A DNA stretch of 64,000 bases from positions 9,371 to 73,370 of the forward strand of contig JAAYKM010000051.1 of the NCBI GenBank assembly GCA_012522415.1. The letters run 5' to 3'. The notes below the pieces were generated by a model that was not told the DNA's origin, did not search any database, and saw nothing but the letters and a program-made list of their open reading frames with translations. The stretch comes from Deltaproteobacteria bacterium (lineage in GTDB: Bacteria; Desulfobacterota; Syntrophia; Syntrophales; JAAYKM01). Made by a program: the position numbers and the translations under genes. Of the stretch, positions 4,522-21,172 are shown piece by piece (within the stretch, counting starts at the first letter, position 1; each line of letters begins with the position of its first letter).

Positions 4522-4803
4522 ATGGATAAGGAGACAAAGAAATCTCTCATGCAGATGACCTACGCAAGTACCGTGGGCATCTTCATGGCTATCGTGATCT
4601 TTGGCGGCGTTTATTTAGGCAGCTACCTGGATCGCAAGTTTGGAACCGCCCCTTATTTCACCATTCTTTTGCTTATCCTGGGTGTGTTTGTCGGATTTCG
4701 CAATGTCTATCTTTTAATTAAAAAAATTAAGGATGATACACCCTTCATAAAGGGTATAAAAAGTGAACCCCATAGAAAAAGACCCCCTCCAGCGAAAAAT
4801 TGA
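4522..4803 (+). CDS. AtpZ/AtpI-family small membrane protein (ATP synthase protein I2)
   Basis: 93 aa with two TM helices: YASTVGIFMAIVIFGGVYLGSYLDRKFGTAPYFTILLLILGVFVGFRNVY. It sits at the head of the F0 genes. Confidence 0.7.
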   Translation: MDKETKKSLMQMTYASTVGIFMAIVIFGGVYLGSYLDRKFGTAPYFTILLLILGVFVGFRNVYLLIKKIKDDTPFIKGIKSEPHRKRPPPAKN

Positions 4804-5158
4804 GATCTTCAACTGGATCCTGTTGGGGATGTTTCTCCTTATCAGTCTTCTTTTCCTGTCTCCTCGTTTCGCTCTGGGCGTCTTTCTGGGTGGTCTGATC
4901 AGTATCATCAATTTCTACTGGCTTTACAAAAACATGAAGGATGTTTTCGCACGGCTCAGCGGTTCGGCCAAGTCGGCGATGATGTTCAAATACTTTATTC
5001 GGCTGGCCCTGACGGCCGTGGTTCTTTTTTTCATTGTGACAAGCAATAAAGTGGACATTTTAGGGCTTCTGGTCGGCCTTTCCGTGGTGGTCATCAACCT
5101 GGTGCTGACGGCGATCATGACCCTGTCAAAAAAAAACTGTCTGGAGGAGGTTAAATAA
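4763..5158 (+). CDS. atpI: ATP synthase subunit I-like membrane protein
   Basis: 131 aa with about 4 hydrophobic helices, located directly upstream of atpB. The start is uncertain; the GTG at 4763 overlaps atpZ by 41 nt. Confidence 0.6.
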   Translation: MNPIEKDPLQRKIEIFNWILLGMFLLISLLFLSPRFALGVFLGGLISIINFYWLYKNMKDVFARLSGSAKSAMMFKYFIRLALTAVVLFFIVTSNKVDILGLLVGLSVVVINLVLTAIMTLSKKNCLEEVK

Positions 5159-5161
5159 ACA

Positions 5162-5824
5162 ATGCATCCCCTGTCTTTTCTGGAACTTGCATTCCCCGGT
5201 ATGCCCACCCATGTGACCTACACATGGTTGATCATGATCGGACTGGTGATTCTGTCCTTCCTTGCAACCCGGCGCCTGAACATCAATCCGGGCGGCGTTC
5301 AGAACGTCATGGAAGTGATTATCGACGCCATGTACAAACTGCTGCTCGACACCATGGGCGAGCACGGCAAGAAGTTCTTCCCCTTGATCGCGACGATCGG
5401 TCTTTTTATTTTGACCTCGAATCTCCTGGGTCTTATTCCGGGCTTCGAATCACCCACGGGCAATCTGAACACCAACCTCTGCATGGCCCTGGTCGTCTTT
5501 TTCCTGACGCATATCGTAGGCGTCAAGATCCATGGCTGGAAATATCTGAAACAGTTTGTCGGCCCCAGTCCCTGGCTTGCGCCTCTGATTCTCCCCATCG
5601 AACTCGTCGGGCATCTGGCCCGTCCCGTTTCCCTGACCTTCCGTCTGTTCGGAAACATCGAGGGGGGACACATCGTTCTGGCCGTTCTGATCATCCTGGT
5701 GCCCCTGCTGATCCCCCTGCCGATCTTGGTTCTGAAGCTCCTGATCTGCTTCATCCAAACCTTGGTTTTCATGCTCCTGTCCATGATGTACATTGCAGGG
5801 GCAATGGAAGAAGCCCATTCCTGA
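5162..5824 (+). CDS. atpB: F0F1 ATP synthase subunit a
   Basis: 220 aa with the conserved Arg in [20 protein letters not shown] and multiple TM helices. Confidence 0.95.
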
Positions 5825-5842
5825 CCCTTTATCGACTTACCG

Positions 5843-5873
5843 GAGACCGGTCATCACGACCGGTCTCTTTTTT
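5843..5873 (+). terminator. Rho-independent terminator directly after atpB
   Basis: Perfect 10-bp stem gagaccggtc / gaccggtctc with loop atcac, followed by TTTTTT (5868-5873). Confidence 0.85.
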
Positions 5874-5891
5874 GTACGGATGGAAAAGAAC

Positions 5892-5926
5892 AGAATTTAT
5901 ACCCGGATATCCAATAGAATTTATAC
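5892..5926. repeat. Two direct copies of agaatttatac, 24 bp apart, in the AT-rich spacer
   Basis: agaatttatac occurs at 5892-5902 and again at 5916-5926. Function is unknown. Confidence 0.5.
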
Positions 5927-6348
5927 GCCTGTATACGGGGTCATTTCGACCGCAGGGAGAAACCTTGCTTCTCTCTGAATCCGTTTATCCCGGTCGGGAG
6001 GAGATGACTTCTCCTTGATATTCTTAACCCAATCCGTCAATCTGATTCATAATTTCTTGTTGGCAACCTTCTCGGAGCCTCTTACTCTATATCCCGCCTG
6101 CATAGGGGGCATTTCTACTTACCGCAATGAAATTAAGCGGATACGTATCGTTCCATGGATATGCTTGAAGCCGACATATTATACGGATCCCCATAATACA
6201 CCACAACAAATGAACACCATGGTATAAGTTATTGAATATATGGCTTTATACAATGGTTTAGCCGCAATATTTGAAGGCGTGTTATGCGGATCGGTCACGT
6301 CAAGTAATGCTTGCAATTTCGGGTAACGAGTCCATCTACATCTTCCGA

Positions 6349-6556
6349 TTACGCTGCCTTTCGTAGTGCTGCCCGTTGCTCTTCTATGAGCGACGGTTTC
6401 ACATAACATCTTTCTGTCGACCAGTCCTCGCCATATTCAATCAGGTAGGCGCTGACAAGGCGAAGATAACTATCCATGCCGGGGAAGATGCCCGCAACCC
6501 GGGACCGTCGCCGAATCTCCCGATGGAGGCGTTCGATGATGTTGACGGAGTGAAAC
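6349..6556 (-). pseudogene. C-terminal remnant of an IS256-family (mutator-type) transposase
   Basis: NIIERLHREIRRRSRVAGIFPGMDSYLRLVSAYLIEYGEDWSTERCYV matches the conserved C-terminal block of IS256 transposases (xERLNxEIRRRTxVVGIFPN...LRLV). The ~300 N-terminal aa, including the DDE core, are missing. The N-terminus of the track ORF is read through the neighbouring terminator hairpin. Confidence 0.7.
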
Positions 6557-6557
6557 A

Positions 6558-6598
6558 AGAAAGCCCCCCGGTAGTTTATTACGACCGGGGGGCTTTCT
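6558..6598 (-). terminator. Strong hairpin downstream of the 1149-aa gene
   Basis: Perfect 15-bp stem agaaagccccccggt (6558-6572) / accggggggctttct (6584-6598) with an 11-nt loop. On the minus strand it is followed by the T-rich cttgtttc. It starts 22 nt after the stop codon. Confidence 0.7.
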
Positions 6599-6619
6599 AA
6601 TTCAGATATTAAACCCTTC

Positions 6620-9600
6620 TTACAATTCAAGTTGCTCGAATTCCCAGTTCACCTGGGCACTCAGATAATCGGCCCCGTTCGTATAACGGATCTCCCCATC
6701 CGCAAGGGGGGCGGGACGAACCACACCCTGTTTGGCCGTCCTCAGACTGATGAAACGGGCACGAAGCGCCATTCTCAGTTTTTCCGTCTTACCGACTTCG
6801 GGAATCCTGTCGAATATGGTTGGATAATCCGCCTTCAGAACCTGGGCAAAGCGGTTCAGGCGACGTTCACCGGACAAAAATGTCCCGGCCCTTTCCCCGG
6901 AAACCTTTAGGGGGAGTATCAGGTCCGCTTTTTCCACGGTCGGCGTCAGGAACGCGTCAGCCACCACGATGAAATCCGCTTTACCGACAACTTCATCTGC
7001 AACTTTCCCGCTCACCGCACAGCCGACGGGATCCTCTCCCAGGATGAACAAGCCTCTTCGGGCCGCTATATCCTCGGCAAAGCCCATTTCCAGAAGACCC
7101 TGGGCGTTTGGCGTCAAAGGCAGGCCGAGAACCGGACAACCCTTTAACACCGCAAGATTCGCCGCCCACCGTGCCGTGTTGCCCCCAGCCCTGCCGGAAA
7201 TGACGATAACAGGATTTTGTGCCCCGTTCAGGGCCGACAGCAGATCGTCATCCTCTTCGCAGGCGGCCACCTTGAGTCCTTTGAACAGCCCCTTCGTCTC
7301 CGCAGTCTTGACGGATTTCGCAACCGTTTTACAGACACCGGCCAGTGTCGCCGCGGGCGAATGGCTGACGTCGAAGATGTCGAAAGCATGATGCAGCGTC
7401 CTCGGGGCTTCCATCCCCAGACCATACAGGGTAGCGCCGTTCTTTTTCGCGCCGCGGATTTTGACACCGAGAACCGTCATCATGTCTTCATCGTCGAAAC
7501 CAACCGCAAGAACCATGTCGGCCGCATCCACCACATTATAACTCCAGGGTGAGCCGACCGTGCCAAACGTTTCGTTGATCGCCTCACCAACCTTGAGGGA
7601 GTCGGAGGAGAAAGAGGATTTCAACCCTTCCGGCATGTTTTTATCAACGAAGACATCGAGCTGAGCCAACTCCTCCAAGGTCAGCCGACCTCCCGCATAT
7701 ATCCCCCAGTCTTTACCCGGTATGCGGCCCACACTACCCACAAGAATTTTGTGTGCTTCCGTCCAGGAGATGGGTTTCAGGATATCCCCGTCCCGTTTCA
7801 TCGGTTCCGTAATCCGGGGCAGGTTGTTTATATAGCGGGTACCGTAACGCCCGTACCTGCACAGGAGACCGTTATTCGGATCGCGTTCCGGTGCCTTCAC
7901 AGAGACAAGGCGGCCGTTCACCGTGGCCAGATTGAGATGACAACCGAATCCCCCGAAGGTGCAGACACCCGGCATCTCGATCGCATCCTCCGGGACCGTC
8001 TTGGTACCGGGGAACCTTTCATCGAGCGATCCCGTGGGGCAGTTCTGTACACAGGTACCGCAAGACTCGCAGTCCGTCTCCTGCAAGGCGACCCCGAACG
8101 AAGGCTGAACCGTCGTCACGTAACCGCGGTCGACGAAACCCCAGGCTCCAACATGCCTCAGTTCATCGCAAGCCCGTACACAGGCACCGCACAGGATGCA
8201 TTTGTTCTGATCTTTCATAATGAAAGGATGCCTCAAGTCCGGTTCGAATCGAATTTCTCCTTTCGTTTTCAGCGCTGTCGGTTCCGCGTCGACGACCTTG
8301 CCGATCTGCCGCAGTTCGCAGTCATACTGGGAGAAACACCCGCATTCCAGGCATCGACCGGCTTCCCGGCGCAATTCCCCTTCAGCAAAACCCAGCTCGC
8401 ATTCCTTGAAATCCTTGATACGCTCTTTGGGATCAACCATGGGCATCTCGGCACGCGGTTCAGCAGGATAACGGTTCTTCCACTCCTCTTCGAGCGGTCT
8501 GAGATCTCCCAAGGATTTTCCGCGCTGAACCGAGTAGACGCCGGGAATGGGCGTCAAATCCCGTCCTTTCAAAAAACGGTTGATCTGGGTGGCCGCATTG
8601 CGCCCGTCGGCGATACTCTCGACCACCGTGCAGGGGCCCCTCATGGCATCACCGCCGGCGAACACCTCCGGAATATCCGTCTGGAAAGTGTCCTCATTGA
8701 CCACAAAGGTCGACCATCTGGTCGTCCGGACCTCGCAATCGGCGCCGATACAGGCGACATCCGGTTCCTGGCCGATCGCCATGATGATCGTATCCGCCTG
8801 GAGCATGAATTCCGACCCCTCGATGACGACCGGGCTGCGCCGGCCCGATGCATCGGGTTCACCCAGTTCCATGCGAACGGATTCAATGGATTCCATTCTC
8901 TTCTTCCCGTGAATCCTAACCGGATTGGTGAGAAAGTGAAAGCGCACGCCTTCCTCTTCCGCATCGTGCACTTCAATGGGATCGGCCGGCATTTCCGCAC
9001 GGCTTCTCCGATAAACGATATAGCAGTTTTTCGCACCCAGACGCAGAGACGTCCGAACGGCATCGATAGCCGTATTTCCACCGCCCACGACCACCACCGT
9101 TTCGCCTAGGTCAAATTGCTTGCCGAGTTTCACATCCCGCAGAAAGTCGATCCCCTGATAGACCCCTTCGAGTTCCTCGCCGGGAATTCCCATGGACTTG
9201 CTTACATGGGCGCCGACGGCCAGGAAGACCGCATCAAAGGATCGCCGCAGACCATCGATTGTCACATCCTTGCCCAATTCCGTGTTGTAGATGAATTCCA
9301 CGCCCAGAGACTCGATTTCCGCGATTTCCGCATCCAGCTCATTTTGGGGCAGGCGGTAATCGGGGATGCCGTACCGGGTCATGCCGCCCGCTTTCGGCAG
9401 TTTTTCGATGATCATGCACTGATGTCCCTGCTGGGCCAGGTAATAGGCACAGGACATCCCGGCCGGCCCGGCGCCGACGATGGCCACGGTCTTACCGCTT
9501 GACGGAGCGACCGGTGGGTTGTAGCGGGTACCCCTTTCGAAATTCCTGTCCGAGATGAATCGCTTGATGGACTTGATCGAAACCGTTTCATCCACCAGAT

Positions 9601-10069
9601 TGCGGCGGCATTCCTTCTGACATGGAGCGGGACAGACCCGGCCCAGGATACCGGGAAAGGGGACCTTCTCCTTGATGAGCTTTTCCGCGTCGTGGTATTC
9701 GCCGTTGGCGGCCAGTCCCACATAACCCTGGATATCAATGCCCGCTGGACAGGTCATGTTGCACGGGGCCACACAATCCGCAAAATGATTGGAAAAGAGC
9801 AGTTCTATGTCGAGTTTTCGAAGACTCTGGATCAGTTCGGTCTCCGTATTGATTGTGATACCGTCAAAAACCGGCGCCGCACAGGCCACCACGGGATATC
9901 TCGCGTTTTTCTGTTCGACAAGACAGACCCGGCAGCTTCCGAAAGGGTCGATCTGAGCGCGCTCACAGAGAACGGGAATGCCGATTCCGTTTCGTTTGGC
10001 CACTTCGCGAATGGTTTCACCTTGTCTCGCTTCATATTCTCTACCGTTTATTCTAACTTTGATCGCCAT
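6620..10069 (-). CDS. Chimeric FeS flavoprotein: NuoG/FdhA-type 2Fe-2S N-terminus, GltD/NfnB-like NAD(P)H module, 4Fe-4S domains, and a cofactor-less-looking molybdopterin-oxidoreductase-like domain (StnC/SfrAB-like)
   Basis: 1149 aa with an AGGAGG SD. Motifs in order: GSCRVCLVE (2Fe-2S fold); CVAPCNMTCPAG and CPAPCQKEC (GltD N-terminal clusters); VAIVGAGPAGMSCAYYL, VVVVGGGNTAIDAVRT and FAGGDAMRG (FAD/NAD(P)H folds); CILCGACVRAC and CESCGTCVQNCP (ferredoxin motifs). The MopB-like region then opens with a degenerate cluster motif, CTFGGFGC. Confidence 0.85.
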   Translation of the reverse strand: MAIKVRINGREYEARQGETIREVAKRNGIGIPVLCERAQIDPFGSCRVCLVEQKNARYPVVACAAPVFDGITINTETELIQSLRKLDIELLFSNHFADCVAPCNMTCPAGIDIQGYVGLAANGEYHDAEKLIKEKVPFPGILGRVCPAPCQKECRRNLVDETVSIKSIKRFISDRNFERGTRYNPPVAPSSGKTVAIVGAGPAGMSCAYYLAQQGHQCMIIEKLPKAGGMTRYGIPDYRLPQNELDAEIAEIESLGVEFIYNTELGKDVTIDGLRRSFDAVFLAVGAHVSKSMGIPGEELEGVYQGIDFLRDVKLGKQFDLGETVVVVGGGNTAIDAVRTSLRLGAKNCYIVYRRSRAEMPADPIEVHDAEEEGVRFHFLTNPVRIHGKKRMESIESVRMELGEPDASGRRSPVVIEGSEFMLQADTIIMAIGQEPDVACIGADCEVRTTRWSTFVVNEDTFQTDIPEVFAGGDAMRGPCTVVESIADGRNAATQINRFLKGRDLTPIPGVYSVQRGKSLGDLRPLEEEWKNRYPAEPRAEMPMVDPKERIKDFKECELGFAEGELRREAGRCLECGCFSQYDCELRQIGKVVDAEPTALKTKGEIRFEPDLRHPFIMKDQNKCILCGACVRACDELRHVGAWGFVDRGYVTTVQPSFGVALQETDCESCGTCVQNCPTGSLDERFPGTKTVPEDAIEMPGVCTFGGFGCHLNLATVNGRLVSVKAPERDPNNGLLCRYGRYGTRYINNLPRITEPMKRDGDILKPISWTEAHKILVGSVGRIPGKDWGIYAGGRLTLEELAQLDVFVDKNMPEGLKSSFSSDSLKVGEAINETFGTVGSPWSYNVVDAADMVLAVGFDDEDMMTVLGVKIRGAKKNGATLYGLGMEAPRTLHHAFDIFDVSHSPAATLAGVCKTVAKSVKTAETKGLFKGLKVAACEEDDDLLSALNGAQNPVIVISGRAGGNTARWAANLAVLKGCPVLGLPLTPNAQGLLEMGFAEDIAARRGLFILGEDPVGCAVSGKVADEVVGKADFIVVADAFLTPTVEKADLILPLKVSGERAGTFLSGERRLNRFAQVLKADYPTIFDRIPEVGKTEKLRMALRARFISLRTAKQGVVRPAPLADGEIRYTNGADYLSAQVNWEFEQLEL

Positions 10070-10077
10070 AATTCCTC

Positions 10078-11841
10078 CTATTCGACAATGATCGCGTCGA
10101 ATTTACATGCGTCCTTGCAGAAGCCACAACGGGTGCATAATTCATCGTCGATTTGGTGAACCTGCTTGCGTTCACCGGTTGCGGCACCGACGGGACACGT
10201 CTTCGCACAGAGTGTGCAGCCAGTACATTTATCGGCCACCACCCGGTAAGTGATCAGGGCCTTGCATTTTTTGGCCGGGCATTTCTTCTCGCGGATATGG
10301 GCTTCGTATTCGTCCCGGAAATAACGCAGTGTGGTCAGAACCGGGTTCGGAGCGGTCTGACCCAGACCGCAGAGCGATCCCTTGATGATGGCGTCACAGA
10401 GCTTCTGAAGCAGGGGGATATCCTCCTCAGTGCCCTCTCCCGCTGTAATCCTCTCGAGGATTTCAAGCATCCGTTTTGTACCGACGCGACAGAAGGTGCA
10501 TTTGCCGCAGGACTCCTCGACCGTAAAGGAGAGGAAATAACGGGCAATGTCGACCATGCAGGTGCCCTGATCCATAAAGACCATACCGCCAGAACCGACA
10601 ATGGCCCCGGTCGCGGTAATATTTTCGTAATCGATCGGCGTATCATGAAGATGAGAGGGAATACATCCGCCCGAAGGCCCGCCCATCTGGACGGCCTTGC
10701 ACTTGCCGTTGTTGATGATGCCGCCGCCGATATCGTTGACGATTTCGTTGATGGTTATCCCCATCGGCACCTCAATCATTCCCCCGCGATTGATCTTGCC
10801 GGCGAGAGCGAACACCTTGGTTCCCTTCGACATGTCTGTGCCGTACTTGGAAAAGGCGGCTCCCCCCTCCCTGATGATGTAGGGGATGTTGGCGTAAGTT
10901 TCGACGTTGTTGTTGTTCGTGGGTTTCCCCCAGATACCCTGCGTCGCCGGGAAAGGTGGGCGGGTGCGGGGCATGCCCCGTTTCCCTTCGATGGACGCGA
11001 TCAGGGCCGTTTCCTCCCCGCAGCCAAACGCGCCGGCTCCCTCGATGACATGGAGGGTAAAGCTGAAGTCGGTGCCCAAAATATTTTTCCCCGAATAGCC
11101 TCTCGCCTCCGCCTGATTGATGGCCAGGCGAAGCCTCTTCACAGCCAGCGGATATTCGGCTCTGACGTAGAAGAACCCAACCTGGGCGCCCACCGCATAG
11201 GCACCGATGGTCATCCCCTCGATCACGCCGTGGGGATCGCCTTCCAGGGTGGAGCGGTCCATAAAGGCACCGGGGTCCCCTTCATCGCCGTTGCAGATCA
11301 TATATTTTTCCTCGCCCGGGGCATCCTTTGCGAACTGCCATTTCATTCCGCAGGAAAAACCTGCTCCTCCACGCCCCCGGAGTCCGGAAGCACGAACCTG
11401 ATCGATAACATCCTGACGGTCCATGGTCTTCAAAACTTTCTCCAGGGCCCGGTAACCACCGGCCGCAACGTAGTCATCGACGTTTTCCGGATCGATGACA
11501 CCGATATTCTTGGTGGCCAACTTGACCTGCTTGTCCTGATAGGATGATTGCGTCGTCGGGTGATCGGGGTGAAGGATGATCCAGTCTTCAAGGTGTGTCC
11601 CTTTAGCCAGAGCATCAATGAATTTTTGAACCTTGTCAGCCGTCAGATTACCATAGGTGTATACTTTCTCTTCCTCGATCACATCGATAATCGGTTCCAG
11701 ATAGCACATACCGTTACAGCCTGTTTTCCTGATCTCAAAATCACTGTTCCCGTCAAGCAATTCATGTAGCTTGTTCAGGGTTTCTTCCGCTCCTGCGGCA
11801 ATCCCGCAGGAATTGTATCCAATACGGAGGATTTTCATCAT
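10078..11841 (-). CDS. NuoF/HydB-like NADH-binding FMN FeS flavoprotein subunit
   Basis: 587 aa with GRGGAGFSCGMKW, CNGDEGDPGAFMDR and SCGKCTFCRVG (N3 cluster). The C-terminus has 2x[4Fe-4S] motifs CTGCTLCAKTCP and CTRCGFCKDAC. There is a thioredoxin-like N-terminal domain. Confidence 0.9.
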   Translation of the reverse strand: MMKILRIGYNSCGIAAGAEETLNKLHELLDGNSDFEIRKTGCNGMCYLEPIIDVIEEEKVYTYGNLTADKVQKFIDALAKGTHLEDWIILHPDHPTTQSSYQDKQVKLATKNIGVIDPENVDDYVAAGGYRALEKVLKTMDRQDVIDQVRASGLRGRGGAGFSCGMKWQFAKDAPGEEKYMICNGDEGDPGAFMDRSTLEGDPHGVIEGMTIGAYAVGAQVGFFYVRAEYPLAVKRLRLAINQAEARGYSGKNILGTDFSFTLHVIEGAGAFGCGEETALIASIEGKRGMPRTRPPFPATQGIWGKPTNNNNVETYANIPYIIREGGAAFSKYGTDMSKGTKVFALAGKINRGGMIEVPMGITINEIVNDIGGGIINNGKCKAVQMGGPSGGCIPSHLHDTPIDYENITATGAIVGSGGMVFMDQGTCMVDIARYFLSFTVEESCGKCTFCRVGTKRMLEILERITAGEGTEEDIPLLQKLCDAIIKGSLCGLGQTAPNPVLTTLRYFRDEYEAHIREKKCPAKKCKALITYRVVADKCTGCTLCAKTCPVGAATGERKQVHQIDDELCTRCGFCKDACKFDAIIVE

Positions 11842-12320
11842 TCAGCCTCCTTCTTCTTGTACTCTTTCATAACTTTGCGAACCTTGTCCGTGGAGAGTTT
11901 CCCATAGACTTTTTCCCCAACCATGATGACGGGGGCCAGGCTACAGCATCCCAGACAAGCCACCGACTCGACGGTAAACAGCATATCCGGCGTCGTCTCT
12001 CCCGACTTGACATTCAGCGCACCCTCAATGGCTTCGGTAAGGCCGTCGGCATTCTGAACATGACAGGCCGTCCCATGACAGACACGAACCAGGTTTTTTC
12101 CGACGGGCGTCAGGCGGAATTGGGCGTAAAAAGTGACAATTCCATAAATGCTGGCGGTTGAAACTCCCATACTTCTGGCAACACGTTCCAGAGCTTCCTT
12201 TTCCAGGTAGCCCTTGTGCGCCTGAACCTGCTGAAGCACGGTGATGAGCGTTCCCTTATGGCCCCTGTAACGCTCCAGTACCTCATCGACATAACTAAAA
12301 TCCAGTTGTTCCATTTTCAA
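11838..12320 (-). CDS. NuoE/HydC-like thioredoxin-fold 2Fe-2S subunit
   Basis: 160 aa with CHGTACHV ... CLGCCSLAPV. It overlaps the NuoF-like gene by 4 nt. Confidence 0.9.
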   Translation of the reverse strand: MKMEQLDFSYVDEVLERYRGHKGTLITVLQQVQAHKGYLEKEALERVARSMGVSTASIYGIVTFYAQFRLTPVGKNLVRVCHGTACHVQNADGLTEAIEGALNVKSGETTPDMLFTVESVACLGCCSLAPVIMVGEKVYGKLSTDKVRKVMKEYKKKEAE

Positions 12321-12708
12321 CTCCTTGGAAGAAGACTCAACGCCACCGTGAAACCCGACACGGAGAAGCAGAGACCCGTACGGAACGGGTATCCGCCTTT
12401 ACCTGAACGAAGGCGTTTTCTCGAAGACGCTTATCAAACGATTACGGTGGAAAGTCGCCTAACCACCATAGGCCGGGGGGAGAAACTTGAATTGGGTACC
12501 ACCCGACATTCTATGTATAAAAGGGCATTCAGCGATCATGGCGGACAGTTACCTGTGTTTTCAATGATGAGAATACCTTTCAATCGCGGCGACATATACT
12601 AAAAAGGCGGGTGAAGGTCAAGGAGAAAAAACGGAACGGGAGAGGCAAAATGGACGTCTCTTCCACACCTAAGGTCCTGTATTTTCGGCTGTTTTATCAG
12701 GGGCTATG

Positions 12709-14718
12709 CTATACCAGACGCTCCGCCACAATCTCCGCAATATCCTTTACGACAATCTGTCCGGAAGCATTTTCGTCCTTCAGTCCGTCCTCAAACATGG
12801 TCATACAGTACGGACACGCCACACTGATCACTTCCGCATCCGTTGCCAGGGCATCTTTTGTCCGTTCGACATAAATTCGGCTTCCCTGATTTTCCTCGAG
12901 CCACATGCGGCCGCCGCCTGCGCCACAACAGAAACTCTCCGAACCGTGGCGGCTCATTTCTACAGGCGCCTTTCCGCCGCAGACCCTGGCGATGATCGCT
13001 CTCGGCTCCTTGTAGATATTGTTATAACGTCCGAGATAGCATGGATCATGGTACGTGACGCGCATCCCCGTTTCCCCTTTCAGTTTGAGTACGCCGCTCT
13101 GCAGGAGCTTGTGAATGAGTTGGGAATGGTGGATCACCTCGAAATCGACGCCGTACTGCCCGTAATCGTTTTTCAATGTACTGAAACAATGAGGACAGTA
13201 GGTGATGATTTTTTTGATCCCGTACTTTTTGAAGATTTCTATATTGTCCCTCACCAGGATATCGAAAACATATTCGTTCCCCAGTCTCCGCAGAGAATCG
13301 CCACAGCATTTCTCCTCATTACCCAGCACACCCCAGGAAAGACGGGCGGCGTTGAGGATCTTCGCCACAGCCGTCGTCACCATCCTGCCCCTTGGATCAA
13401 AGGATCCCGAACAGCCCACATAGAAGAGATACTCGACTTGGGCGCCATGTGAAAGGATCTTGATGTCCCGGTCATGGACCCACTTTTCCCGTTCATTCGG
13501 TGCGATTCCCCAGGGATTGAATCGCTGTTCCGAATTTTCGAAAAAAGCGATCAATTCTTCCGGGAAGGCAGCCTTTTCCACAACCAGATGACGCCGGAGC
13601 CCAATCAGTTTCGGTACATGTTCGATAAAAACAGGACACTGCTGCATGCAGGCCCCGCATGTCGTACAGGACCAGATGGCATCAACCGAAATGCTTTCGT
13701 CACGCGTATTGATAAGCGGAACAGCCATCTCGGCCGAATCGGGAGCGGAAACAAGCGTGTCCGGGGGTCTGGAAGCAAGCAGAATCCGGCCATTGGCCAA
13801 GAGATTGAGTTTTCCCTCATGAACAACCTCCTTGGGATTCAGGGGTTTGTGCGTGTTATGGGCGGGGCAGGCCGCCTGGCACCGGCCGCACTCCGTGCAG
13901 GACAGGAAATCCAGCAGGTCCTTCCATGAATATTGGACTATCTTTGAAACGCCAAAGCGTTCCCCGCGACGAAAGATCATCCGGGGAACGGTATTTACAA
14001 ATGAGGCATTCCTGAAAAAGATATTCGGTATCGCCGTCAGGATATGCAAATGTTTGCTGTAGGGCAGATAATTGAGGAAAAACAAGAGTACCAGGGCATG
14101 AGTCCACCAGAATATCCGTCCCAGGGCATGGCCCCCTTCCTGGGTCAGTCCCCGGAAGAGAGGCGCCAGGAGAGAAGAAACCGGCATGGTCCAGCGGGAA
14201 ATCGCTTTTCCGTTCAACCGGATTTCGCTGGCATGATAACCGAAGTAGGCAACTATTAGAACGGCAACCAGACCCAAAATCACAAAGGCATCCACTGTCT
14301 GGTCGATATAGGCGGGACGGAAGAACATCCGCCGAATAACGGCGTTGAAAACGCATACCAGCACCACAACCGACATGATATCGGCCATGAAGAGCATGGC
14401 CCCATAGGGGATATCTCCCAAAAACCAGAAGGAGAAGCGGGGGAAGACACCTGAGACCAGAAACTCCACATTCATCAGAAGGAGAAACATGAAACCCCAG
14501 AACAGAAGCAGGTGGTTCACGCCGAATCCTTCACTTACAACACGAACCTGGGCGAAGCCATACACCAGCATACCCCGGAATCGCGACCAGAGACGATCAA
14601 AACGATTCTCACTCCGCCCGAGGCAGATCATGGCAAAGAGGCGGTACAGGTTGCGCAAAAAGAAACCCACCGCACCGACAAGAATGAACAGGAACAACAA
14701 GGATTCGACGGAACTCAA
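12709..14718 (-). CDS. Membrane FeS oxidoreductase: N-terminal NarI/DsrM-like polytopic domain, 2x[4Fe-4S], and two CCG (HdrD/GlpC-like) domains; putative Etf:menaquinone oxidoreductase
   Basis: 669 aa. The first ~230 aa are hydrophobic helices carrying His residues (NHLLLFWG, WWTHALV, SKHLHILTA). These are followed by CTECGRCQAACP and CTTCGACMQQCP, then the Cys-rich CCGDS, CPHCF, DPCYLGR, FCCGAGGG and CPYCMTM. TTG start with GGAG SD. Confidence 0.85.
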   Translation of the reverse strand: MSSVESLLFLFILVGAVGFFLRNLYRLFAMICLGRSENRFDRLWSRFRGMLVYGFAQVRVVSEGFGVNHLLLFWGFMFLLLMNVEFLVSGVFPRFSFWFLGDIPYGAMLFMADIMSVVVLVCVFNAVIRRMFFRPAYIDQTVDAFVILGLVAVLIVAYFGYHASEIRLNGKAISRWTMPVSSLLAPLFRGLTQEGGHALGRIFWWTHALVLLFFLNYLPYSKHLHILTAIPNIFFRNASFVNTVPRMIFRRGERFGVSKIVQYSWKDLLDFLSCTECGRCQAACPAHNTHKPLNPKEVVHEGKLNLLANGRILLASRPPDTLVSAPDSAEMAVPLINTRDESISVDAIWSCTTCGACMQQCPVFIEHVPKLIGLRRHLVVEKAAFPEELIAFFENSEQRFNPWGIAPNEREKWVHDRDIKILSHGAQVEYLFYVGCSGSFDPRGRMVTTAVAKILNAARLSWGVLGNEEKCCGDSLRRLGNEYVFDILVRDNIEIFKKYGIKKIITYCPHCFSTLKNDYGQYGVDFEVIHHSQLIHKLLQSGVLKLKGETGMRVTYHDPCYLGRYNNIYKEPRAIIARVCGGKAPVEMSRHGSESFCCGAGGGRMWLEENQGSRIYVERTKDALATDAEVISVACPYCMTMFEDGLKDENASGQIVVKDIAEIVAERLV

Positions 14719-14779: not shown

Positions 14780-16177
14780 CTACGGACCTGTAACCTGTCC
14801 GGGCTGTTTTTCCAGATCCAGCCAGAACAGATTCGAGATGTCCGATGAGACCGGGTGTGCCCAGCTCGTGTGCAATTTATCGATCAGAGCGGGGAGGATT
14901 TCGAAAACATCCCCGACGATGCCCAAATGGGCAACCTGAAAGATCGGCGCATTGCGGTCTGTGTTTATCGCAATGATATGCTCCGAATCCTGCATCCCAA
15001 CCAGGTGTTGAATCGCCCCGGAAATCGCGCAGGCAATGTAGAGTTTGGGACGAACGGTTTTCCCCGTCTGGCCGACTTGACGTTCATGGGGCATCCAGCC
15101 GGCATCCACAGCGCTGCGCGAAGAGGCCACCACACCCCCCAGAAGATCTGCCAGATCGTACAGTATCTTGAAATTCTCCGCGTTCTGAAAACCCCGGCCA
15201 CCGCTGACAATCACATTGGCCACCGAAATATCGATGGCGCCCTCAGTTTTCAGGGGAATGATCTCCAGCACGGCGCTGTTCAGAAGATCGGTCTGCAACC
15301 CGAAGGGTTCCGTCATGACAGGCCCCGTTCGACCGGGGTGTACATCCGGCTTCGGCATCACGTGGGGACGGACGGAAGCCATCTGGGGGCGTGCCGTTTC
15401 CGTTAGAATCGTCGCCATGATGTTGCCCCCGAATGCTGGGCGCGTCTGCTCCAGAAGCCGGCGGCTCTTGTCGATCGCCAGACCCGTACAGTCCGCGGTC
15501 AGTCCCGTCTGCAACTCCGTGGCAATGGCTCCCGCCAGATCACGCCCCAACCCCGTTGCCCCAATCAATATCACTTCCGGTTTGTATTTCCGAATCAGGG
15601 TCAAGGCCCCGTGCAGATAGGGCTCCGTACGATAGTGTTCCAGAAGCGGATCCTCTGTCATAAAAACAACGTCGGCCCCGTACGCAAAAGCCTCATCCGC
15701 CAGATGTTTGATGTTCGAACCGAGAACGAACGCAGACAATTGGACCTGCAAGTCCCTGGCAAGGGTCCGACCCGCGCCGAGAAGTTCCCAGGACACCGAA
15801 TGGGCCTTGCCTTCGGCCTGTTCCACAAACACCCAGACACCTCTCCAGGCATCGAGAGACGATTCCGTTTTCTCCGTCATCGATGCCGAGGCATCCTCGT
15901 CTTCAACCGGCTCACTGTGCTCAGCACTCCCCTTGTCGAGTTCTTCCAGCAACCTCTGCTCCTCCGGAGTAAAAGCCATCCGAAGCGCCTCCGCCGGGCA
16001 AACCTTGACACATTTCGCGCAGCCGATACACTTGTCCGTCAGAATGATGGGCTCATCCTTTTCGTTCATTTCTATGGCATCCACCTTGCAGGCCGCTTGG
16101 CAGCGGGCTCCGCATGCAATACACTTTCCGGGGATCAATTCAGCCTTGCCGCGGGGTCTCTTGACTTTTTTTTCCAT
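14780..16177 (-). CDS. Electron transfer flavoprotein large subunit (EtfA/FixB type) with a fused N-terminal 2x[4Fe-4S] ferredoxin domain
   Basis: Ferredoxin domain motifs are CIACGARCQAAC (CX2CX3CX3C) and CIGCAKCVKVCP, followed by an acidic linker. The Etf alpha fold follows with TRPAFGGNIMATI and SGAIQHLVGM. The ATG at 16177 is preceded by GGAG; the track start at 16183 is a GTG. Confidence 0.85.
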   Translation of the reverse strand: MEKKVKRPRGKAELIPGKCIACGARCQAACKVDAIEMNEKDEPIILTDKCIGCAKCVKVCPAEALRMAFTPEEQRLLEELDKGSAEHSEPVEDEDASASMTEKTESSLDAWRGVWVFVEQAEGKAHSVSWELLGAGRTLARDLQVQLSAFVLGSNIKHLADEAFAYGADVVFMTEDPLLEHYRTEPYLHGALTLIRKYKPEVILIGATGLGRDLAGAIATELQTGLTADCTGLAIDKSRRLLEQTRPAFGGNIMATILTETARPQMASVRPHVMPKPDVHPGRTGPVMTEPFGLQTDLLNSAVLEIIPLKTEGAIDISVANVIVSGGRGFQNAENFKILYDLADLLGGVVASSRSAVDAGWMPHERQVGQTGKTVRPKLYIACAISGAIQHLVGMQDSEHIIAINTDRNAPIFQVAHLGIVGDVFEILPALIDKLHTSWAHPVSSDISNLFWLDLEKQPGQVTGP

Positions 16178-16264
16178 CGTCACTCCTAAAAAATCGGCCC
16201 ATGAGGGGACATAGGCAGGATTTGCAAACCGGCAAATCCATGTTCAACAGTTCTCTTCGCTCCG

Positions 16265-17083
16265 TCAGTGCCCCAACGATATGAAATCCCAGTCCAGAAG
16301 CTTTTTGAAAACCATGTCCACCGCCCTGTCCATCTTTTCTCCCTCCCCATCGACGATCTCACCCTTGTCCCGCTGCGGGGCAAAAATCTTGCGCACCTGT
16401 GTCGGGGATCCTCTCAAGCCGATCATATCCGGATCCAGTTTCAGAACGTCATTCGTCCAGATCGGCACTTTTGCTTCCAGCGCCTCCAGACGCCCCGGGA
16501 CCGTTGGGTAACGGGGCACATTCACTTCGCGAACCACCGTAATCAATACAGGCAGCCTCGACTCGACGATCTCGTGCATTTCCTCGAGAACGCGCCGAAC
16601 AACAATGATCCGTTTTTCCTTGTGAATCTCCAGAATACGGTCCACCAACGTCAGTTGTGAATATTTCAGCCGACACGCAATTCCCGGTCCCACCTGGGCC
16701 GTGTCACCGTCGATCGTCTGTTTACCGCATAAAACGATATCCACCGGCTTTTGCCCGTCGAGCCTGCGGATCGCTTCCGACAAAACCAGACTTGTCGCCA
16801 ATGTATCGGCGCCCCCGAAGGCACGATCACTGAGCAATACGGCATCGTCTACACCAAGGGCCATGGCCTTTTTCAGAACCGCGTCCGCCGCGGGGGGACC
16901 CATCGAAATGGCTGTCACGCAGCCGCCATATTTTTCTTTCAAACGCAAGGCCTCTTCCACCGCATGATTGTCAAAAGGATTCGTAATAAACGGCACCCCT
17001 TCGCGGACCAGGGTGTTCGTTACAGGGTCGATGATCACCTGTGTTGTGTCCGGTACCATTTTCACACAGACAACATAATGCAT
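16265..17083 (-). CDS. Electron transfer flavoprotein small subunit (EtfB/FixA), bifurcating-type sequence signature
   Basis: 272 aa with VCVKMVPDT, DRAFGGADTLATS, CGKQTIDGDTAQVGP and GSPTQV. From memory these match Acidaminococcus/Clostridium bifurcating EtfB rather than canonical ETF-beta. Confidence 0.85.
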   Translation of the reverse strand: MHYVVCVKMVPDTTQVIIDPVTNTLVREGVPFITNPFDNHAVEEALRLKEKYGGCVTAISMGPPAADAVLKKAMALGVDDAVLLSDRAFGGADTLATSLVLSEAIRRLDGQKPVDIVLCGKQTIDGDTAQVGPGIACRLKYSQLTLVDRILEIHKEKRIIVVRRVLEEMHEIVESRLPVLITVVREVNVPRYPTVPGRLEALEAKVPIWTNDVLKLDPDMIGLRGSPTQVRKIFAPQRDKGEIVDGEGEKMDRAVDMVFKKLLDWDFISLGH

Positions 17084-17323: not shown

Positions 17324-19735
17324 CTAGGCTTTCCCTAATTTTCGTTCCGCATCCAATATTTCCGCGGTGGTCTTGAGTACCGTATCGGAGTTGAGGGATA
17401 TGCTGTTGATGCCGTATTCGACCAGAAGTCTCGCCACTTCGGGGTAATCACTGGGTGCCTGACCACAGATACCGATTTTTTTACCGATTTTTCTTGCCTT
17501 GCTTATGGCCATCCTGATCAGTTCCTGCACGGCGGCGTCCCGTTCGTCGAAAATGTGGGCCACTTCTGCGGAATCACGGTCCAACCCCAACGTCAGCTGG
17601 GTCAGGTCATTGGAGCCAATGGAGAAGCCGTCGAATATTTCCCCGAATTCTTCAAGCATGATCACGTTGCTGGGAATCTCCACCATCATATAAATTTCAA
17701 GACCATTCTCGCCCTGGACCAGGCCCCGGTCAGCCATGGTTCGGACAACCTTCCCGGCTTCCGTCAACGTCCGGCAAAAAGGGATCATCAACTTGACATT
17801 GGTGAGCCCCATGACGTCCCGCACACGCTTCATGGCATCACATTCCATAAAGAAACCATCTCTATAGCGGTCATCGTAGTAGCGGGAAGCACCCCGGAAA
17901 CCGATCATCGGGTTTTCCTCGACGGGTTCAAAGAAAGAACCACCGACGAGGTTATAATATTCGTTGCTCTTGAAATCACTCATACGCACGATCACGTCAT
18001 TCGGGTAGAAGGCGGCACCGATCTTGGCCACCCCTTGCGCCAGACGGTCGATAAAAAACTCTCTCCGGTCCGCATATCCTCTCGTAATTCTGTCAATTTC
18101 CGCACGAACAGCTTCGTCCGTCACCTGGTTGAAATTGACGAGGGCCATGGGATGAACACTGATGAAATGGCTGATGATGAACTCCAGGCGAGCCAGACCT
18201 ATGCCGTCATTTGGTATGGAGGCAAGGGAAAAAGCATTTTCCGGATTGCCGACATTCATCATGATCTTCGTGGATGGGCGCTTGAGCGTGGTGACGTTAA
18301 CCCGGTTCACATCATATTTCAGAATGCCTTCGTATACCCTTCCCACTTCACCCTCGGCACAGGAAACGGTCACCTCCTTGACATTTTTCAAGACCTCCGT
18401 ACCGTTTTCCGTACCCACAATACAGGGGACCCCAAGTTCACGGCTTACAATCGCCGCATGGCAGGTTCTGCCTCCCCGATCGGTCACAATGGCTGCGGCG
18501 ATCTTCATGATGGGCTCCCAGTCAGGATCGGTCATTTCAGTCACCAGGACCTCGCCCGCTTTGAAAGTCTTGATCTCCTTTACCGATTCGATGATGTGCA
18601 CCGGCCCTGCGCCAATCCTGGAGCCGACACTGGTTCCGAGCAGAATGGGCGTTTTTTCTTCACAGAGAACATAATTTTCGAGGACACTCCCGTCCTTTTG
18701 GGATTGCACGGTTTCAGGCCTCGCCTGCAGGATGAAAAGTTCCTGGGTGATACCGTCCTTGCCCCACTCGATATCCATGGGTTTGAAATAACCCGCCTTT
18801 TCTGAATAATGTCCTTCAATGATGGCGGTCCATTGGCCCAGTTTCAGGACCTCGTCATCGCTCAGGCAAAAATTGTGGCGATCCTCTTCGGGCACCGGGA
18901 CAATCTCCGTTGCGCTCTCCTTTTTGGAATCGGAGTAGATCATCTTGATCTCCTTGGTCCCCAGTTTCTTCTGGATAATGGAACGGAAACCTTCCTTCAG
19001 GGTCGGTTTAAAGACATAAAATTCATCAGGATTGACGATCCCCTGAACGACGGTCTCCCCCAAACCATAGGAAGCGGTAACCAGAATTGCCTCCTTGAAA
19101 CCCGATTCGGTGTCGATAGAAAAGATAACCCCCGAGGCCCCCTGATCCGAGCGAACCATCTTTTGTACCCCAATGGATAAAGCGATAGTCAGATGATCGA
19201 AACCCTTATCCACCCGGTAGGAAATCGCCCGATCCGTAAACAGGGAAGCGAAACACCTCTTGCACGCATCAATCAGGGCGTCCTCGCCCCGGACGTTCAG
19301 GAATGTCTCCTGCTGGCCGGCAAAACTCGCGTCGGGCAGATCCTCCGCCGTGGCGGAACTGCGGACGGCGACATCCGTATCCGGTCCGTACTCTTCACAC
19401 AGGCGCTTATATCCCTTCAAAACTTCATTACGGAGATCATCGGGAAATTTCGCGCTATAAATCAGGGACCGGATCTGCTCGCCTTTACTTCGCAAATTAT
19501 CCAGGTCGTGTGTGTCCAGATCCTTCAGAACATTTTTGATTTCCTTGCCGATTCCCGCGGATTCCAGCAGATATCGATAGGCCGCGGCGGTTACGGCAAA
19601 TCCATCGGGTACGCTCACCCCCTTGGAAGTCAACTCTCTTCTCATCTCGCCGAGGGATGCATTTTTGCCCCCTACCTGTGGAATATCCTTCAATTCTATC
19701 TCATCGAACCACAAAATCAGTTGCTCATCCATCAT
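17324..19735 (-). CDS. ppsA: Phosphoenolpyruvate synthase (pyruvate, water dikinase)
   Basis: GGKNASLGEM, the phospho-His motif TDRGGRTCHAAIVSRELGVPCIVG, and the C-terminal PEP-utilising domain GICGQAPSD. The ATG at 19735 has a GGAGG SD 6 nt upstream. The track start at 19819 adds 28 non-conserved aa. Confidence 0.95.
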   Translation of the reverse strand: MMDEQLILWFDEIELKDIPQVGGKNASLGEMRRELTSKGVSVPDGFAVTAAAYRYLLESAGIGKEIKNVLKDLDTHDLDNLRSKGEQIRSLIYSAKFPDDLRNEVLKGYKRLCEEYGPDTDVAVRSSATAEDLPDASFAGQQETFLNVRGEDALIDACKRCFASLFTDRAISYRVDKGFDHLTIALSIGVQKMVRSDQGASGVIFSIDTESGFKEAILVTASYGLGETVVQGIVNPDEFYVFKPTLKEGFRSIIQKKLGTKEIKMIYSDSKKESATEIVPVPEEDRHNFCLSDDEVLKLGQWTAIIEGHYSEKAGYFKPMDIEWGKDGITQELFILQARPETVQSQKDGSVLENYVLCEEKTPILLGTSVGSRIGAGPVHIIESVKEIKTFKAGEVLVTEMTDPDWEPIMKIAAAIVTDRGGRTCHAAIVSRELGVPCIVGTENGTEVLKNVKEVTVSCAEGEVGRVYEGILKYDVNRVNVTTLKRPSTKIMMNVGNPENAFSLASIPNDGIGLARLEFIISHFISVHPMALVNFNQVTDEAVRAEIDRITRGYADRREFFIDRLAQGVAKIGAAFYPNDVIVRMSDFKSNEYYNLVGGSFFEPVEENPMIGFRGASRYYDDRYRDGFFMECDAMKRVRDVMGLTNVKLMIPFCRTLTEAGKVVRTMADRGLVQGENGLEIYMMVEIPSNVIMLEEFGEIFDGFSIGSNDLTQLTLGLDRDSAEVAHIFDERDAAVQELIRMAISKARKIGKKIGICGQAPSDYPEVARLLVEYGINSISLNSDTVLKTTAEILDAERKLGKA

Positions 19736-19873
19736 CGGTTTCCTCCTAAGCTGGTTGGAATCGGATCTCCATGCATTTTGGTGATCCCGTGTATCAGTTT
19801 TACCCACAACAGTCAACAAAATATCCTCTAAATGGCGGCACCAATTAACAAATTACTCTTTACCTTCAGTGGC

Positions 19874-20728
19874 TTACATCCTTTGTGAAAAATCCAGACG
19901 TACGGGCAGACTCCCGGACACTTCAAGAACAGGTCCGTTCATCATGAACTGTACACCGCCGGCCTCCACCCTGGTTTCCTCACCGTCCATAACCCATTCA
20001 TACAGTTTTTTCGCGTCATTCAGAACCGGTTCGGCAGGAACCTTGTAGACACGGTTCTGCATTTCTTCATCAAACAGCCCGACGCAACCGTGAGATGCAG
20101 GCCGCCCCGGCATATCCCGAGCGTGAATCCAGTATCCCGTATCATCGGGAGAGACATAAAAACGGATGGCATAGTCCATGGGATATTTTGATTTGCCGTC
20201 AGCCGTATCATAAAGAGACGATCGATGGTGCCTGTCGAGTGCGTCCACACGGAAAATACCGGGAGGCGTTTCATGTTTCGCCTTTCCTGTAACGGCGGGC
20301 ATGGAAAACTTCTGTTTCCCGTATTCGTATGCCCCGATCCACTGTTCCGTCACATCAATAAGGATGTATTTTCGAAAGGGCTTCGCTTTTCCGTACATTT
20401 CCGGCAGCGGTGTGTAATGTTCAATGTCTTCGAGATTGAGAGGCACCTTGATGGTCATGCCCGGATAGGCGTGACGGCGGTCAAGGCGGTTGAAACGGGC
20501 CACCCAAACCCATCGGTTACCAAAGAGCCGCTCCAGGCTTTCGTCGGGGAGGATGAAATGGGGACGCCAGGGGATATTCTTCAAACTCGGATAAACAATG
20601 CGTCCCAGGTCTTCCATGGCCGAATCCTCGGGAAGCGGGCCGGGAAGAGAGATAAGCCGCGGGTTGTATGCAATGATGACGCACATGAGGAGGATAGCCA
20701 GGGTCAAACGAACGGACAATTGTGGCAT
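19874..20728 (-). CDS. L,D-transpeptidase (YkuD/ErfK family) with an N-terminal membrane anchor
   Basis: 284 aa. The catalytic motif is WIHARDMPGRPASHGCVGL. The N-terminus is hydrophobic (LTLAILLMCVIIAY). Confidence 0.8.
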   Translation of the reverse strand: MPQLSVRLTLAILLMCVIIAYNPRLISLPGPLPEDSAMEDLGRIVYPSLKNIPWRPHFILPDESLERLFGNRWVWVARFNRLDRRHAYPGMTIKVPLNLEDIEHYTPLPEMYGKAKPFRKYILIDVTEQWIGAYEYGKQKFSMPAVTGKAKHETPPGIFRVDALDRHHRSSLYDTADGKSKYPMDYAIRFYVSPDDTGYWIHARDMPGRPASHGCVGLFDEEMQNRVYKVPAEPVLNDAKKLYEWVMDGEETRVEAGGVQFMMNGPVLEVSGSLPVRLDFSQRM

Positions 20729-21172
20729 GCTTATCTTTCAACAGAAATTTTGTTGAGCTTATACCATTTCCCCTCCCCGGATTCAATGGTTTTGGCATGA
20801 TGTGCCTGCCGATCTGCCCTTACAAAACAGGCCGTCAGCCCCCGATCATGACGACCTGCAACGAATGAAGGGATACCTGCCGAATTTTGGCGACGCCTAC
20901 CCGTCGTTTCAGACCCGACAACGGTCAGCACACGCCGGGGCACCGAAAAACAAGGCAAGGGGAGATCACAAGAATTTTTGGCAATTGATCCCACATGGGC
21001 ATCCATGATAGAGGTGCCGTATGGGTTAAAAGATATGTTATGAATTGACTGGAAACGAAAACAAAACAGGCGGAATATCTGTCGAAAAAATACCTTGAAT
21101 TTGATAGGTGCCTCTCCGGTCGGCATCGGACGCATCCCACGGAAGATCAGGAGGATTGAAGAGGATAAAATT

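Follow-up and report, generated by a model that had tools for sequence, protein, structure and literature searches.

A predicted Stn/NfnABC-type electron-bifurcating transhydrogenase operon in a Syntrophales bacterium

Within the 64,000-nt stretch of contig JAAYKM010000051.1 from a Syntrophales bacterium (positions 9,371 to 73,370; hereafter the window), three consecutive genes on the minus strand encode a NuoE-like protein, a NuoF-like protein and a large subunit of 1149 amino acids (aa), which are here assigned to the Stn / Nfn-BfuABC type of electron-bifurcating transhydrogenase (Table 1). The NuoE-like and NuoF-like genes share 4 nt (11838-11841), and 8 nt (10070-10077) separate the end of the 587-aa gene from the start of the 1149-aa gene. 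These junctions and the terminator at 6558-6598 had been pointed out in an earlier note on this DNA, and both are borne out by the list of open reading frames (ORFs) and by folding: an 86-nt piece with the hairpin has a predicted free energy of -35.4 kcal/mol (z -5.4), and the 200 shuffled versions all folded less stably. The hairpin is positioned 22 nt past the stop codon of the large subunit. It was not listed by a simple terminator scan, whose T-run rule is stricter; the consensus promoter and terminator counts of the scan are not above those of shuffled sequence (4 versus 4.1; 8 versus 7.1), so that no weight is given to the promoter-like site at 12564-12535. A regulatory RNA upstream of the operon or in its 3' flank was considered and rejected, since an Rfam scan of 5800-12800, which covers the 388-nt upstream region and the 3' flank, returned no family match and only a sub-threshold chance match to a small nucleolar RNA. 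For the NuoE-like gene, the ATG at 12314, giving 158 aa, is more likely to be the start than the TTG at 12320, because a Shine-Dalgarno-like AAGGAG sits 6 nt upstream of the former and directly abuts the latter. The GC content, 0.53-0.57 across the locus, is unremarkable.

Table 1. Features of the three-gene locus and its surroundings (positions in the window)
Feature	Position	Strand	Remarks
NuoE-like gene, ORF as called	11838-12320	-	160 aa, TTG start
stnA / nfnC (BfuC)	11838-12314	-	NuoE/HydC-like, one [2Fe-2S] cluster; probably 158 aa
stnB / nfnB (BfuB), NuoF-like gene	10078-11841	-	587 aa, ATG start; NuoF/HydB-like; thioredoxin-like N-terminus, flavin mononucleotide (FMN)/NAD(H) site, B1 [4Fe-4S], C-terminal 2x[4Fe-4S] (B3, B4) ferredoxin-docking domain
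stnC / nfnA (BfuA), large-subunit gene	6620-10069	-	1149 aa, ATG start; assigned from PDB phmmer, AlphaFold2 and Foldseek
Large subunit 1-98	9776-10069	-	HydA/NuoG-type N-terminal [2Fe-2S] domain; PF13510 at 2-77
Large subunit 99-560	8390-9775	-	inserted GltD/NfnL-like NADPH/flavin adenine dinucleotide (FAD) module, two [4Fe-4S]; PF14691, PF07992
Large subunit 561-700	7970-8389	-	Cys-rich return segment; PF12838, PF22117
Large subunit 701-1079	6833-7969	-	NuoG/FdhF-like molybdopterin-oxidoreductase fold without active site; PF04879, PF00384
Thr-Phe-Gly-Gly, residues 704-707	7949-7960	-	Gly706 at second Cys of Molybdop_Fe4S4 motif
Large subunit C-terminal tail 1080-1149	6623-6832	-	no sequence alignment to solved structures
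Shine-Dalgarno-like AAGGAG	12321-12326	-	read directly from the sequence
Intrinsic-terminator-like hairpin	6558-6598	-	15-bp G+C-rich stem, then U-rich tract; CUUUCUUGUUUC
Membrane CCG/4Fe-4S oxidoreductase	12709-14718	-	669 aa, 4Fe-4S dicluster and two CCG domains
etfA, N-terminal 2x[4Fe-4S] ferredoxin domain	14780-16183	-	467 aa
etfB	16265-17083	-	272 aa
Phosphoenolpyruvate synthase/pyruvate phosphate dikinase-type gene	17324-19819	-	
L,D-transpeptidase	19874-20728	-	
Type III glutamine synthetase	21095-23287	+	
F0F1 ATP synthase subunit a	5162-5824	+	
Two small membrane ORFs	4522-4803, 4763-5158	+	no family match

Members of the Stn/NfnABC family have been purified and their structures solved by cryo-EM three times, namely StnABC of Sporomusa ovata (PMC10482914) and the NfnABC enzymes of Caldicellulosiruptor saccharolyticus (PMC11829005) and Thermococcus sibiricus (PMC12018979), and transhydrogenase activity was shown for all three. 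The domain content of the window proteins was determined with Pfam (listing threshold E <= 0.01) and NCBIfam. In the large subunit, Pfam identifies Fer2_4 (residues 2-77), Fer4_20 (99-179), Pyr_redox_2 (194-489), a Fer4 dicluster (623-680), Molybdop_Fe4S4 (700-749) and Molybdopterin (752-1080), in the order that the earlier note had described. The GltD/NfnL-like module is inserted after the N-terminal [2Fe-2S] domain and ahead of the NuoG-type Fe-S domains, collinear with S. ovata StnC and with the NfnA subunits of C. saccharolyticus and T. sibiricus, and the 2Fe-2S and 4Fe-4S ferredoxin-type domains that characterise BfuA are present (PF13510, PF12838 and PF22117). The giant chimeric subunit of the earlier note is not unusual; its exact domain order, inactive FdhF-like domain included, is that of StnC itself, a 1172-aa protein composed of a [2Fe-2S] hydrogenase-like part (1-101), a GltD/NfnB-like NADPH/FAD part (102-565) and a NuoG/FdhF-like part (683-1172) (PMC10482914). 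The architecture is thus the known one that defines StnC/NfnA, the large subunit of Bfu-type transhydrogenases.

Searches of the PDB with phmmer gave, as the best matches of the large subunit, the corresponding chains of all three solved enzymes: 9bov_A (9BOV/9BP5; E 6.5e-234, residues 3-1079), 8oh5_C (8OH5/8OH9; E 1.5e-213, residues 3-1074) and 9n5u_A (E 2.1e-197, residues 3-776). An AlphaFold2 monomer model built on 56 homologues (mean predicted local distance difference test score 90.6, predicted template modelling (TM) score 0.85) superposes in Foldseek over the whole chain on 9bov_A (TM 0.85/0.83) and 8oh5_C (0.84/0.83), while NfnL, GltD and DPD match the inserted module only. The phmmer alignments to the two bacterial chains stop at query residues 1074-1079, ahead of the C-terminal tail; family members commonly have tails of 47-116 aa, and the S. 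ovata large subunit has an 83-aa disordered C-terminal region.

Residue conservation was examined in an alignment of 121 sequences, the window protein and 120 homologues from databases, and against the solved chains. All 27 on-pathway Cys and His ligands are present in the large subunit and invariant in the homologues. In the N-terminal domain these include the [2Fe-2S] ligands C35, C46, C49 and C63, together with H95, which starts the His-ligated cluster motif (H95/C99, likewise invariant); in the GltD-like module they include C103, C107, C146, C150 and C154. The return segment contributes C573/576/578/584 and the ferredoxin-like sets C624/627/630/634 and C667/670/673/677, all twelve of them invariant in the 121 sequences; which of these would serve which cluster we infer from motif spacing. 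Spacing of the motifs would also place the GltD-like module inside the loop of the His-ligated cluster (H95-x3-C99 ... C578-x5-C584). The FAD motif G199xGxxG204, G329-G330-G331 and Y353-R354-R355 are invariant in the family, and the same Tyr-Arg-Arg motif is found in the aligned 9bov_A, 8oh5_C and 4ylf_B. In GltD, NfnB and DPD enzymes this motif binds the 2'-phosphate of NADP(H). R239 aligns with S. ovata R239, a residue near FAD that is needed for activity there, and is invariant in the 120 homologues. K169 aligns with S. ovata K170, the Lys ligand of the FAD-proximal [4Fe-4S] cluster, which is strictly conserved in StnC homologues and replaced by Glu in NfnB (PMC10482914); Lys occupies this position in 120/120 of our homologues.

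The NuoF-like subunit aligns end to end with the three solved BfuB subunits, with E-values of 2.3e-248 (8oh5_B), 3.7e-248 (9n5u_B) and 3.5e-247 (9bov_B), compared with 1e-213 or weaker for the HydB subunits of hydrogenases; the corresponding bit scores are ~825-829 against the Stn/NfnABC chains and at most 714 against hydrogenase HydB. BfuB is defined by Nuo51 FMN-binding, SLBB, Nuo51 4Fe-4S and C-terminal 4Fe-4S ferredoxin-type domains (IPR011538, IPR019554, IPR019575 and IPR017896), the last of which, a C-terminal 2x[4Fe-4S] domain, separates bifurcating from non-bifurcating NuoF homologues (PMC9304861). All of these are found in the 587-aa protein (PF01512, 1e-42; PF10589, 4.9e-35; Fer4 dicluster at 534-584), the SLBB part being only weakly matched (PF22461, E 0.0024; PF10531, E 0.0057), as is the thioredoxin-like N-terminus. 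The candidate cluster and Zn cysteines C12, C42, C46, C445/448/451/491, C521/526, C539-549 and C569-579 are conserved with respect to the three solved chains.

The NuoE-like product corresponds to the thioredoxin-fold [2Fe-2S] protein by which BfuC is recognised (IPR002023), with a PF01257 match at E 2.2e-50. Its two best PDB matches are T. sibiricus NfnC (9n5u_C, 1.7e-48) and 9bov_C (2e-47), while S. ovata StnA (8oh5_A, 9.8e-43) comes fourth, after a hydrogenase HydC with a slightly better score. Cys81/86/122/126 are spaced 5/36/4, as are C74/C79/C115/C119, the ligands of cluster C1 in T. sibiricus NfnC. The order of the three genes is kept in 10/10 related loci whose upstream DNA reaches far enough; they belong to Syntrophales, Peptostreptococcaceae and Elusimicrobia, and in each the large-subunit gene follows the NuoE/F genes.

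Judged from sequence and from the predicted model, the operon would encode a soluble heterotrimeric transhydrogenase of the Bfu family, of the Stn / Nfn-BfuABC type, and we put the probability of this assignment at about 0.87. The earlier note had arrived at a Stn-type NADH/NADPH/ferredoxin bifurcating enzyme, a proposal that the PDB matches and the full-length superposition of the AlphaFold model support; the function characterised in the family that shares this domain order is the one proposed. C. saccharolyticus NfnABC (9BOV/9BP5) is alike in subunit size (1178/584/176 aa versus 1149/587/158-160 aa here), in the domain order of the large subunit with its one [2Fe-2S] motif, six [4Fe-4S] motifs (one of them degenerate here) and FAD, and in the layout of the BfuBC core, which is identical; it differs in that the window protein has Gly at the second Cys of the Molybdop_Fe4S4 motif and in its host, a thermophilic Firmicute rather than a Syntrophales (Desulfobacterota-type) metagenome-assembled genome (MAG). 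S. ovata StnABC (8OH5/8OH9; PMC7483475, PMC10482914) has the same operon content, chimeric large subunit, inactive FdhF-like domain and counterparts of K169 and R239, and is set apart by its 38% identity, by C114 (Ile113 here) and by the off-pathway cluster ligand that is missing here. In the archaeal enzymes, T. sibiricus NfnABC and Thermococcus litoralis NsoABC (9N5U; PMC12018979, PMC9304861), the likeness covers the N-terminal 600 residues of the large subunit (E 1.5e-171) and the B and C subunits, which align no less well than with the bacterial enzymes, and extends to the absence of cysteines for one large-subunit cluster; the archaeal large subunit is, however, ~190 aa shorter, with a truncated FdhF-like domain, aligns only to about query residue 776, and belongs to a monomeric enzyme. 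Bacterial Stn/Nfn-Bfu enzymes form dimer-of-dimers tetramers through the FdhF-like domain, whereas the archaeal enzyme is monomeric and active (PMC12018979), and a tetramer is therefore not a strict requirement of the family.

The relation to the two-subunit transhydrogenases NfnAB/NfnSL (Thermotoga maritima 4YLF, Pyrococcus furiosus 5JCA) is confined to one module. Homology to NfnB/NfnL covers residues 101-502 (E 1e-89 against 4ylf_B, the T. maritima NfnB; Foldseek TMt 0.81-0.84), and the GltD-like module is alike in binding NADP(H) and FAD, as is the overall reaction. Unlike in NfnAB, FAD would not be the bifurcating centre here, this role falling to the NuoE/F-like core, and the non-Cys ligand of the FAD-proximal cluster is Lys instead of Glu. 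No NfnA/NfnS-type gene (FNR-like, with FAD and [2Fe-2S]) was found in the operon or its flanks. Residues 542-577 (8339-8446, minus strand), which follow the GltD core, weakly match residues 8-43 of T. maritima NfnB, CxxC included (i-Evalue 8.1). This suggests, without establishing it, that the module may be circularly rearranged relative to free NfnB, with the N-terminal CxxC segment placed after the core.

Several observations weigh against assigning the operon to the Stn/NfnABC transhydrogenases. The large subunit is only 39% identical to C. saccharolyticus NfnA and 38% to S. ovata StnC, which share 53% identity with each other, and conservation is uneven, from 46-50% in the GltD-like module through 38-45% in the Fe-S parts down to 27-28% in the molybdopterin-like (MopB-like) domain. 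An archaeal Nso/Nfn-type large subunit, at ~41% identity to StnC, belongs to an enzyme of the same proven activity (PMC9304861, PMC7483475), and 38-39% therefore falls within the functionally conserved range. S. ovata C114 is replaced by Ile113, a position at which Val, Ile and Ala predominate across the family and for which the Stn authors reported Val or Ile in other homologues (PMC10482914). Position 706, Cys in 113/121 sequences, is Gly in the window protein, and S. ovata mutants in off-pathway cluster ligands failed to assemble correctly (PMC10482914). Finally, the activity of this clade is predicted by homology, and sequence does not reveal which way the reaction runs in vivo.

If the mechanism of the solved homologues is carried over, with activity and stoichiometry inferred for the window enzyme, the reaction would be 2 NADPH + NAD+ + 2 Fd(ox) <-> 2 NADP+ + NADH + 2 Fd(red) + H+, where Fd is ferredoxin. 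NADP(H) at the GltD-like module would exchange a hydride with a non-bifurcating FAD, from which single electrons would pass through the Lys169-ligated [4Fe-4S] cluster, the second [4Fe-4S] cluster, the His-ligated cluster, the N-terminal [2Fe-2S] cluster, one ferredoxin-type [4Fe-4S] cluster and B1 to the FMN of the NuoF-like subunit. FMN, B1 and the NuoE-like [2Fe-2S] cluster would form a 'flavobicluster' that splits or merges electron pairs. NAD(H) would bind at FMN and exchange its hydride there, and a mobile C-terminal domain of the NuoE-like subunit would gate low-potential electrons to B3/B4, where ferredoxin is expected to dock. The molybdopterin-like domain would have no catalytic role and would persist as a structural remnant for folding or oligomerisation. 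As to direction, the reaction in this Syntrophales bacterium would likely run towards NADPH for biosynthesis, at the expense of NADH and reduced ferredoxin. In metabolic models of uncultured Syntrophales the enzyme would provide a link among the NADPH, NADH and ferredoxin pools.

The alternative that fares best, although it is improbable, keeps the fold family and changes the reaction, to a non-bifurcating NADPH:ferredoxin/acceptor oxidoreductase resembling SfrAB or to an NADPH-dependent sulfur/oxygen reductase, the activity under which T. litoralis NsoABC was initially reported. NsoC is a close StnC homologue first described with a different activity, some homologues are named 'NADPH-Fe(3+) oxidoreductase subunit beta', and the identity to the characterised enzymes is as low as given above; yet the BfuBC core is complete and translationally coupled, with its C-terminal 2x[4Fe-4S] domain, and the related Nso-type enzyme of T. 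sibiricus proved to be a genuine Nfn. SfrAB of Geobacter sulfurreducens, which the earlier note had invoked beside Stn, likewise consists of an NADPH flavoprotein of the GltD kind and a NuoG/FdhA-like Fe-S protein that is cofactor-less. Its two parts are separate polypeptides, and it is not known to bifurcate. Of the two likenesses, that to Stn holds, whereas that to SfrAB is only distant: Kremp et al. (PMC7483475) report 28-40% identity to StnC for the individual domains, and a NuoE/F core is lacking in SfrAB.

It is more improbable still that the Stn/NfnABC-type enzyme is the dedicated partner of an adjacent membrane system, through which electrons from beta-oxidation would be linked to the NAD(P)H and ferredoxin pools in syntrophic reverse electron transport. 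Immediately upstream and on the same strand lie etfB, a ferredoxin-fused etfA and a membrane CCG/Fe-S oxidoreductase, and the arrangement recurs in two related loci (L005 and L006). These are relatives of 85-90% identity, however, so that the shared synteny weighs little; in a third (L015, 81-84% identity) the 3.8 kb upstream of stnA contain no match to Etf or to an ETF:methylmenaquinone oxidoreductase (EMO; ETF, electron-transferring flavoprotein). In the window the two gene sets lie 388 nt apart (12321-12708), and no such interaction is known for Stn/Nfn enzymes. In a fourth locus (L002) the downstream context is unrelated and the upstream context ends at the contig end; a 668-aa ORF there, considered as a candidate EMO, is unrelated. 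Functional coupling was rejected on this distribution, and the Etf/EMO-like genes are treated as neighbourhood rather than partnership. The etfB/etfA/membrane-protein set itself resembles the ETF/EMO system of Syntrophus aciditrophicus.

The molybdopterin-like domain of the large subunit retains the fold without the active site. The PF01568 cap domain was not found in the 1149-aa protein, which in the alignment is gapped at the very place where Rhodobacter capsulatus FdsA (6tg9_A) carries ARVCH, with its metal-ligand Cys and catalytic His; the region expected to hold the catalytic Arg does not align with FdsA. The Cys-His motif is missing in 117/121 aligned sequences, that of the window included. 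The cofactor-less state of the domain, suggested in the earlier note, is thereby upheld. R. capsulatus FdsABG (6TG9) is alike in being built of NuoE-, NuoF- and NuoG-like parts, FdsA aligning through its Fe-S domains and the beginning of its Mo domain with query residues 610-882 (E 1.8e-47), whereas FdsA has the Mo-ligand Cys-His and the cap and FdsB has no C-terminal 2x[4Fe-4S] domain, the window proteins being the reverse on all three counts. The remaining four homologues (P0035, P0036, P0058 and P0082; 1355-1372 aa) keep CARLCH and carry PF01568, and are ~200 aa longer, with ~210 aa in the tail against 70 aa in the window protein. They combine the GltD-like NADPH module with a formate dehydrogenase domain that looks intact, and may be NADPH-linked, Bfu-type formate dehydrogenases.

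That the window operon itself encodes an NAD(P)+-linked, possibly bifurcating Mo/W formate dehydrogenase (Fdh-Bfu type), with the C-terminal domain catalytic and the GltD-like module accessory, would accord with the PF00384 and PF04879 matches, with the name 'formate dehydrogenase major subunit' given to some homologues in databases and with the four intact-looking relatives, but it is effectively refuted by the deleted Cys-His motif, the absence of the cap and of some 200 C-terminal residues, and the finding that purified S. ovata Stn, of the same architecture, has no formate:methyl viologen activity (PMC7483475).

For the transhydrogenase, the role of this domain, called unexplained in the earlier note, has been partly addressed by mutagenesis. 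In S. ovata, where the FdhF-like domain is catalytically inactive, its deletion or mutation of its two cluster sites prevented the correct assembly of an active tetramer, and the Stn authors proposed that it serves stability or tetramer formation, its clusters being an evolutionary remnant non-functional in electron transfer (PMC10482914). The large subunits of the S. ovata and C. saccharolyticus enzymes contain one [2Fe-2S] and six [4Fe-4S] clusters; in the window protein six of the seven corresponding motifs are complete. The seventh, the N7-type motif C703-T-F-G706-G-F-G-C710...C737 of the Molybdop_Fe4S4 domain, is degenerate (CTFGGFGC versus CTFCGMGC), and the corresponding cluster lies off the electron path in StnC (PMC10482914). 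Among relatives of at least 69% identity, position 706 is Gly, Glu or Asp, and Cys is kept in the next ones (63-66%). No compensating conserved Cys or new motif was found elsewhere in the MopB-like domain; an extra or novel cofactor site was rejected, as Cys 913, 937, 978 and 1017 are conserved only in the nearest relatives and form no motif. To judge from the alignment, Gly706 is a lineage-specific decay of an off-pathway cluster ligand. It is conceivable, if rather doubtful, that the enzyme of this Syntrophales sub-clade naturally lacks one of the two remnant clusters or ligates it differently; were this so, it would offer a natural experiment on the purpose of the remnant clusters and of the FdhF-like domain, and the oligomeric state might differ as well. 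The operon raises no new mechanistic question, and the Gly706 variant is its only distinctive trait, the sole one that could shed light on what the off-pathway clusters are for.

A Syntrophales MAG encodes a protein with 99% identity to the window large subunit. A small clade of relatives at 62-84% identity comes from MAGs of Syntrophales, Syntrophobacterales and 'Deltaproteobacteria', and all others are at most 44% identical. The 2022 Bfu survey, in which the BfuBC core defines the family, placed Nfn-type members mostly in Euryarchaeota and Firmicutes (PMC9304861), and Kremp et al. listed one proteobacterial homologue, from Geoalkalibacter (PMC7483475). Large-subunit homologues in six Elusimicrobia loci (L009-L014) match the query only to about residue 800-910 and may have a shortened FdhF-like domain, as in archaeal NfnA. 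There is also a gain for annotation: databases name such proteins 'FAD-dependent oxidoreductase', 'formate dehydrogenase major subunit', 'glutamate synthase small subunit' or 'NADPH-Fe(3+) oxidoreductase', while the evidence points to the large subunit of Stn/NfnABC.

Farther from the operon, the flanking housekeeping genes (4522-5824 and 17324-23287) have no evident link to it. Just past the stn genes and overlapping their terminator region, a 93-aa ORF (6349-6630, minus strand) matches with its residues 27-71 the C-terminus of PF00872 (333-377 of 379; E 1.2e-9) and is a remnant of a Mutator/IS256-family transposase, beyond which lie divergently oriented ATP-synthase genes. In the 85%-identical locus L005, the equivalent position is taken by a 718-aa patatin-like gene (L005:12667-14823).

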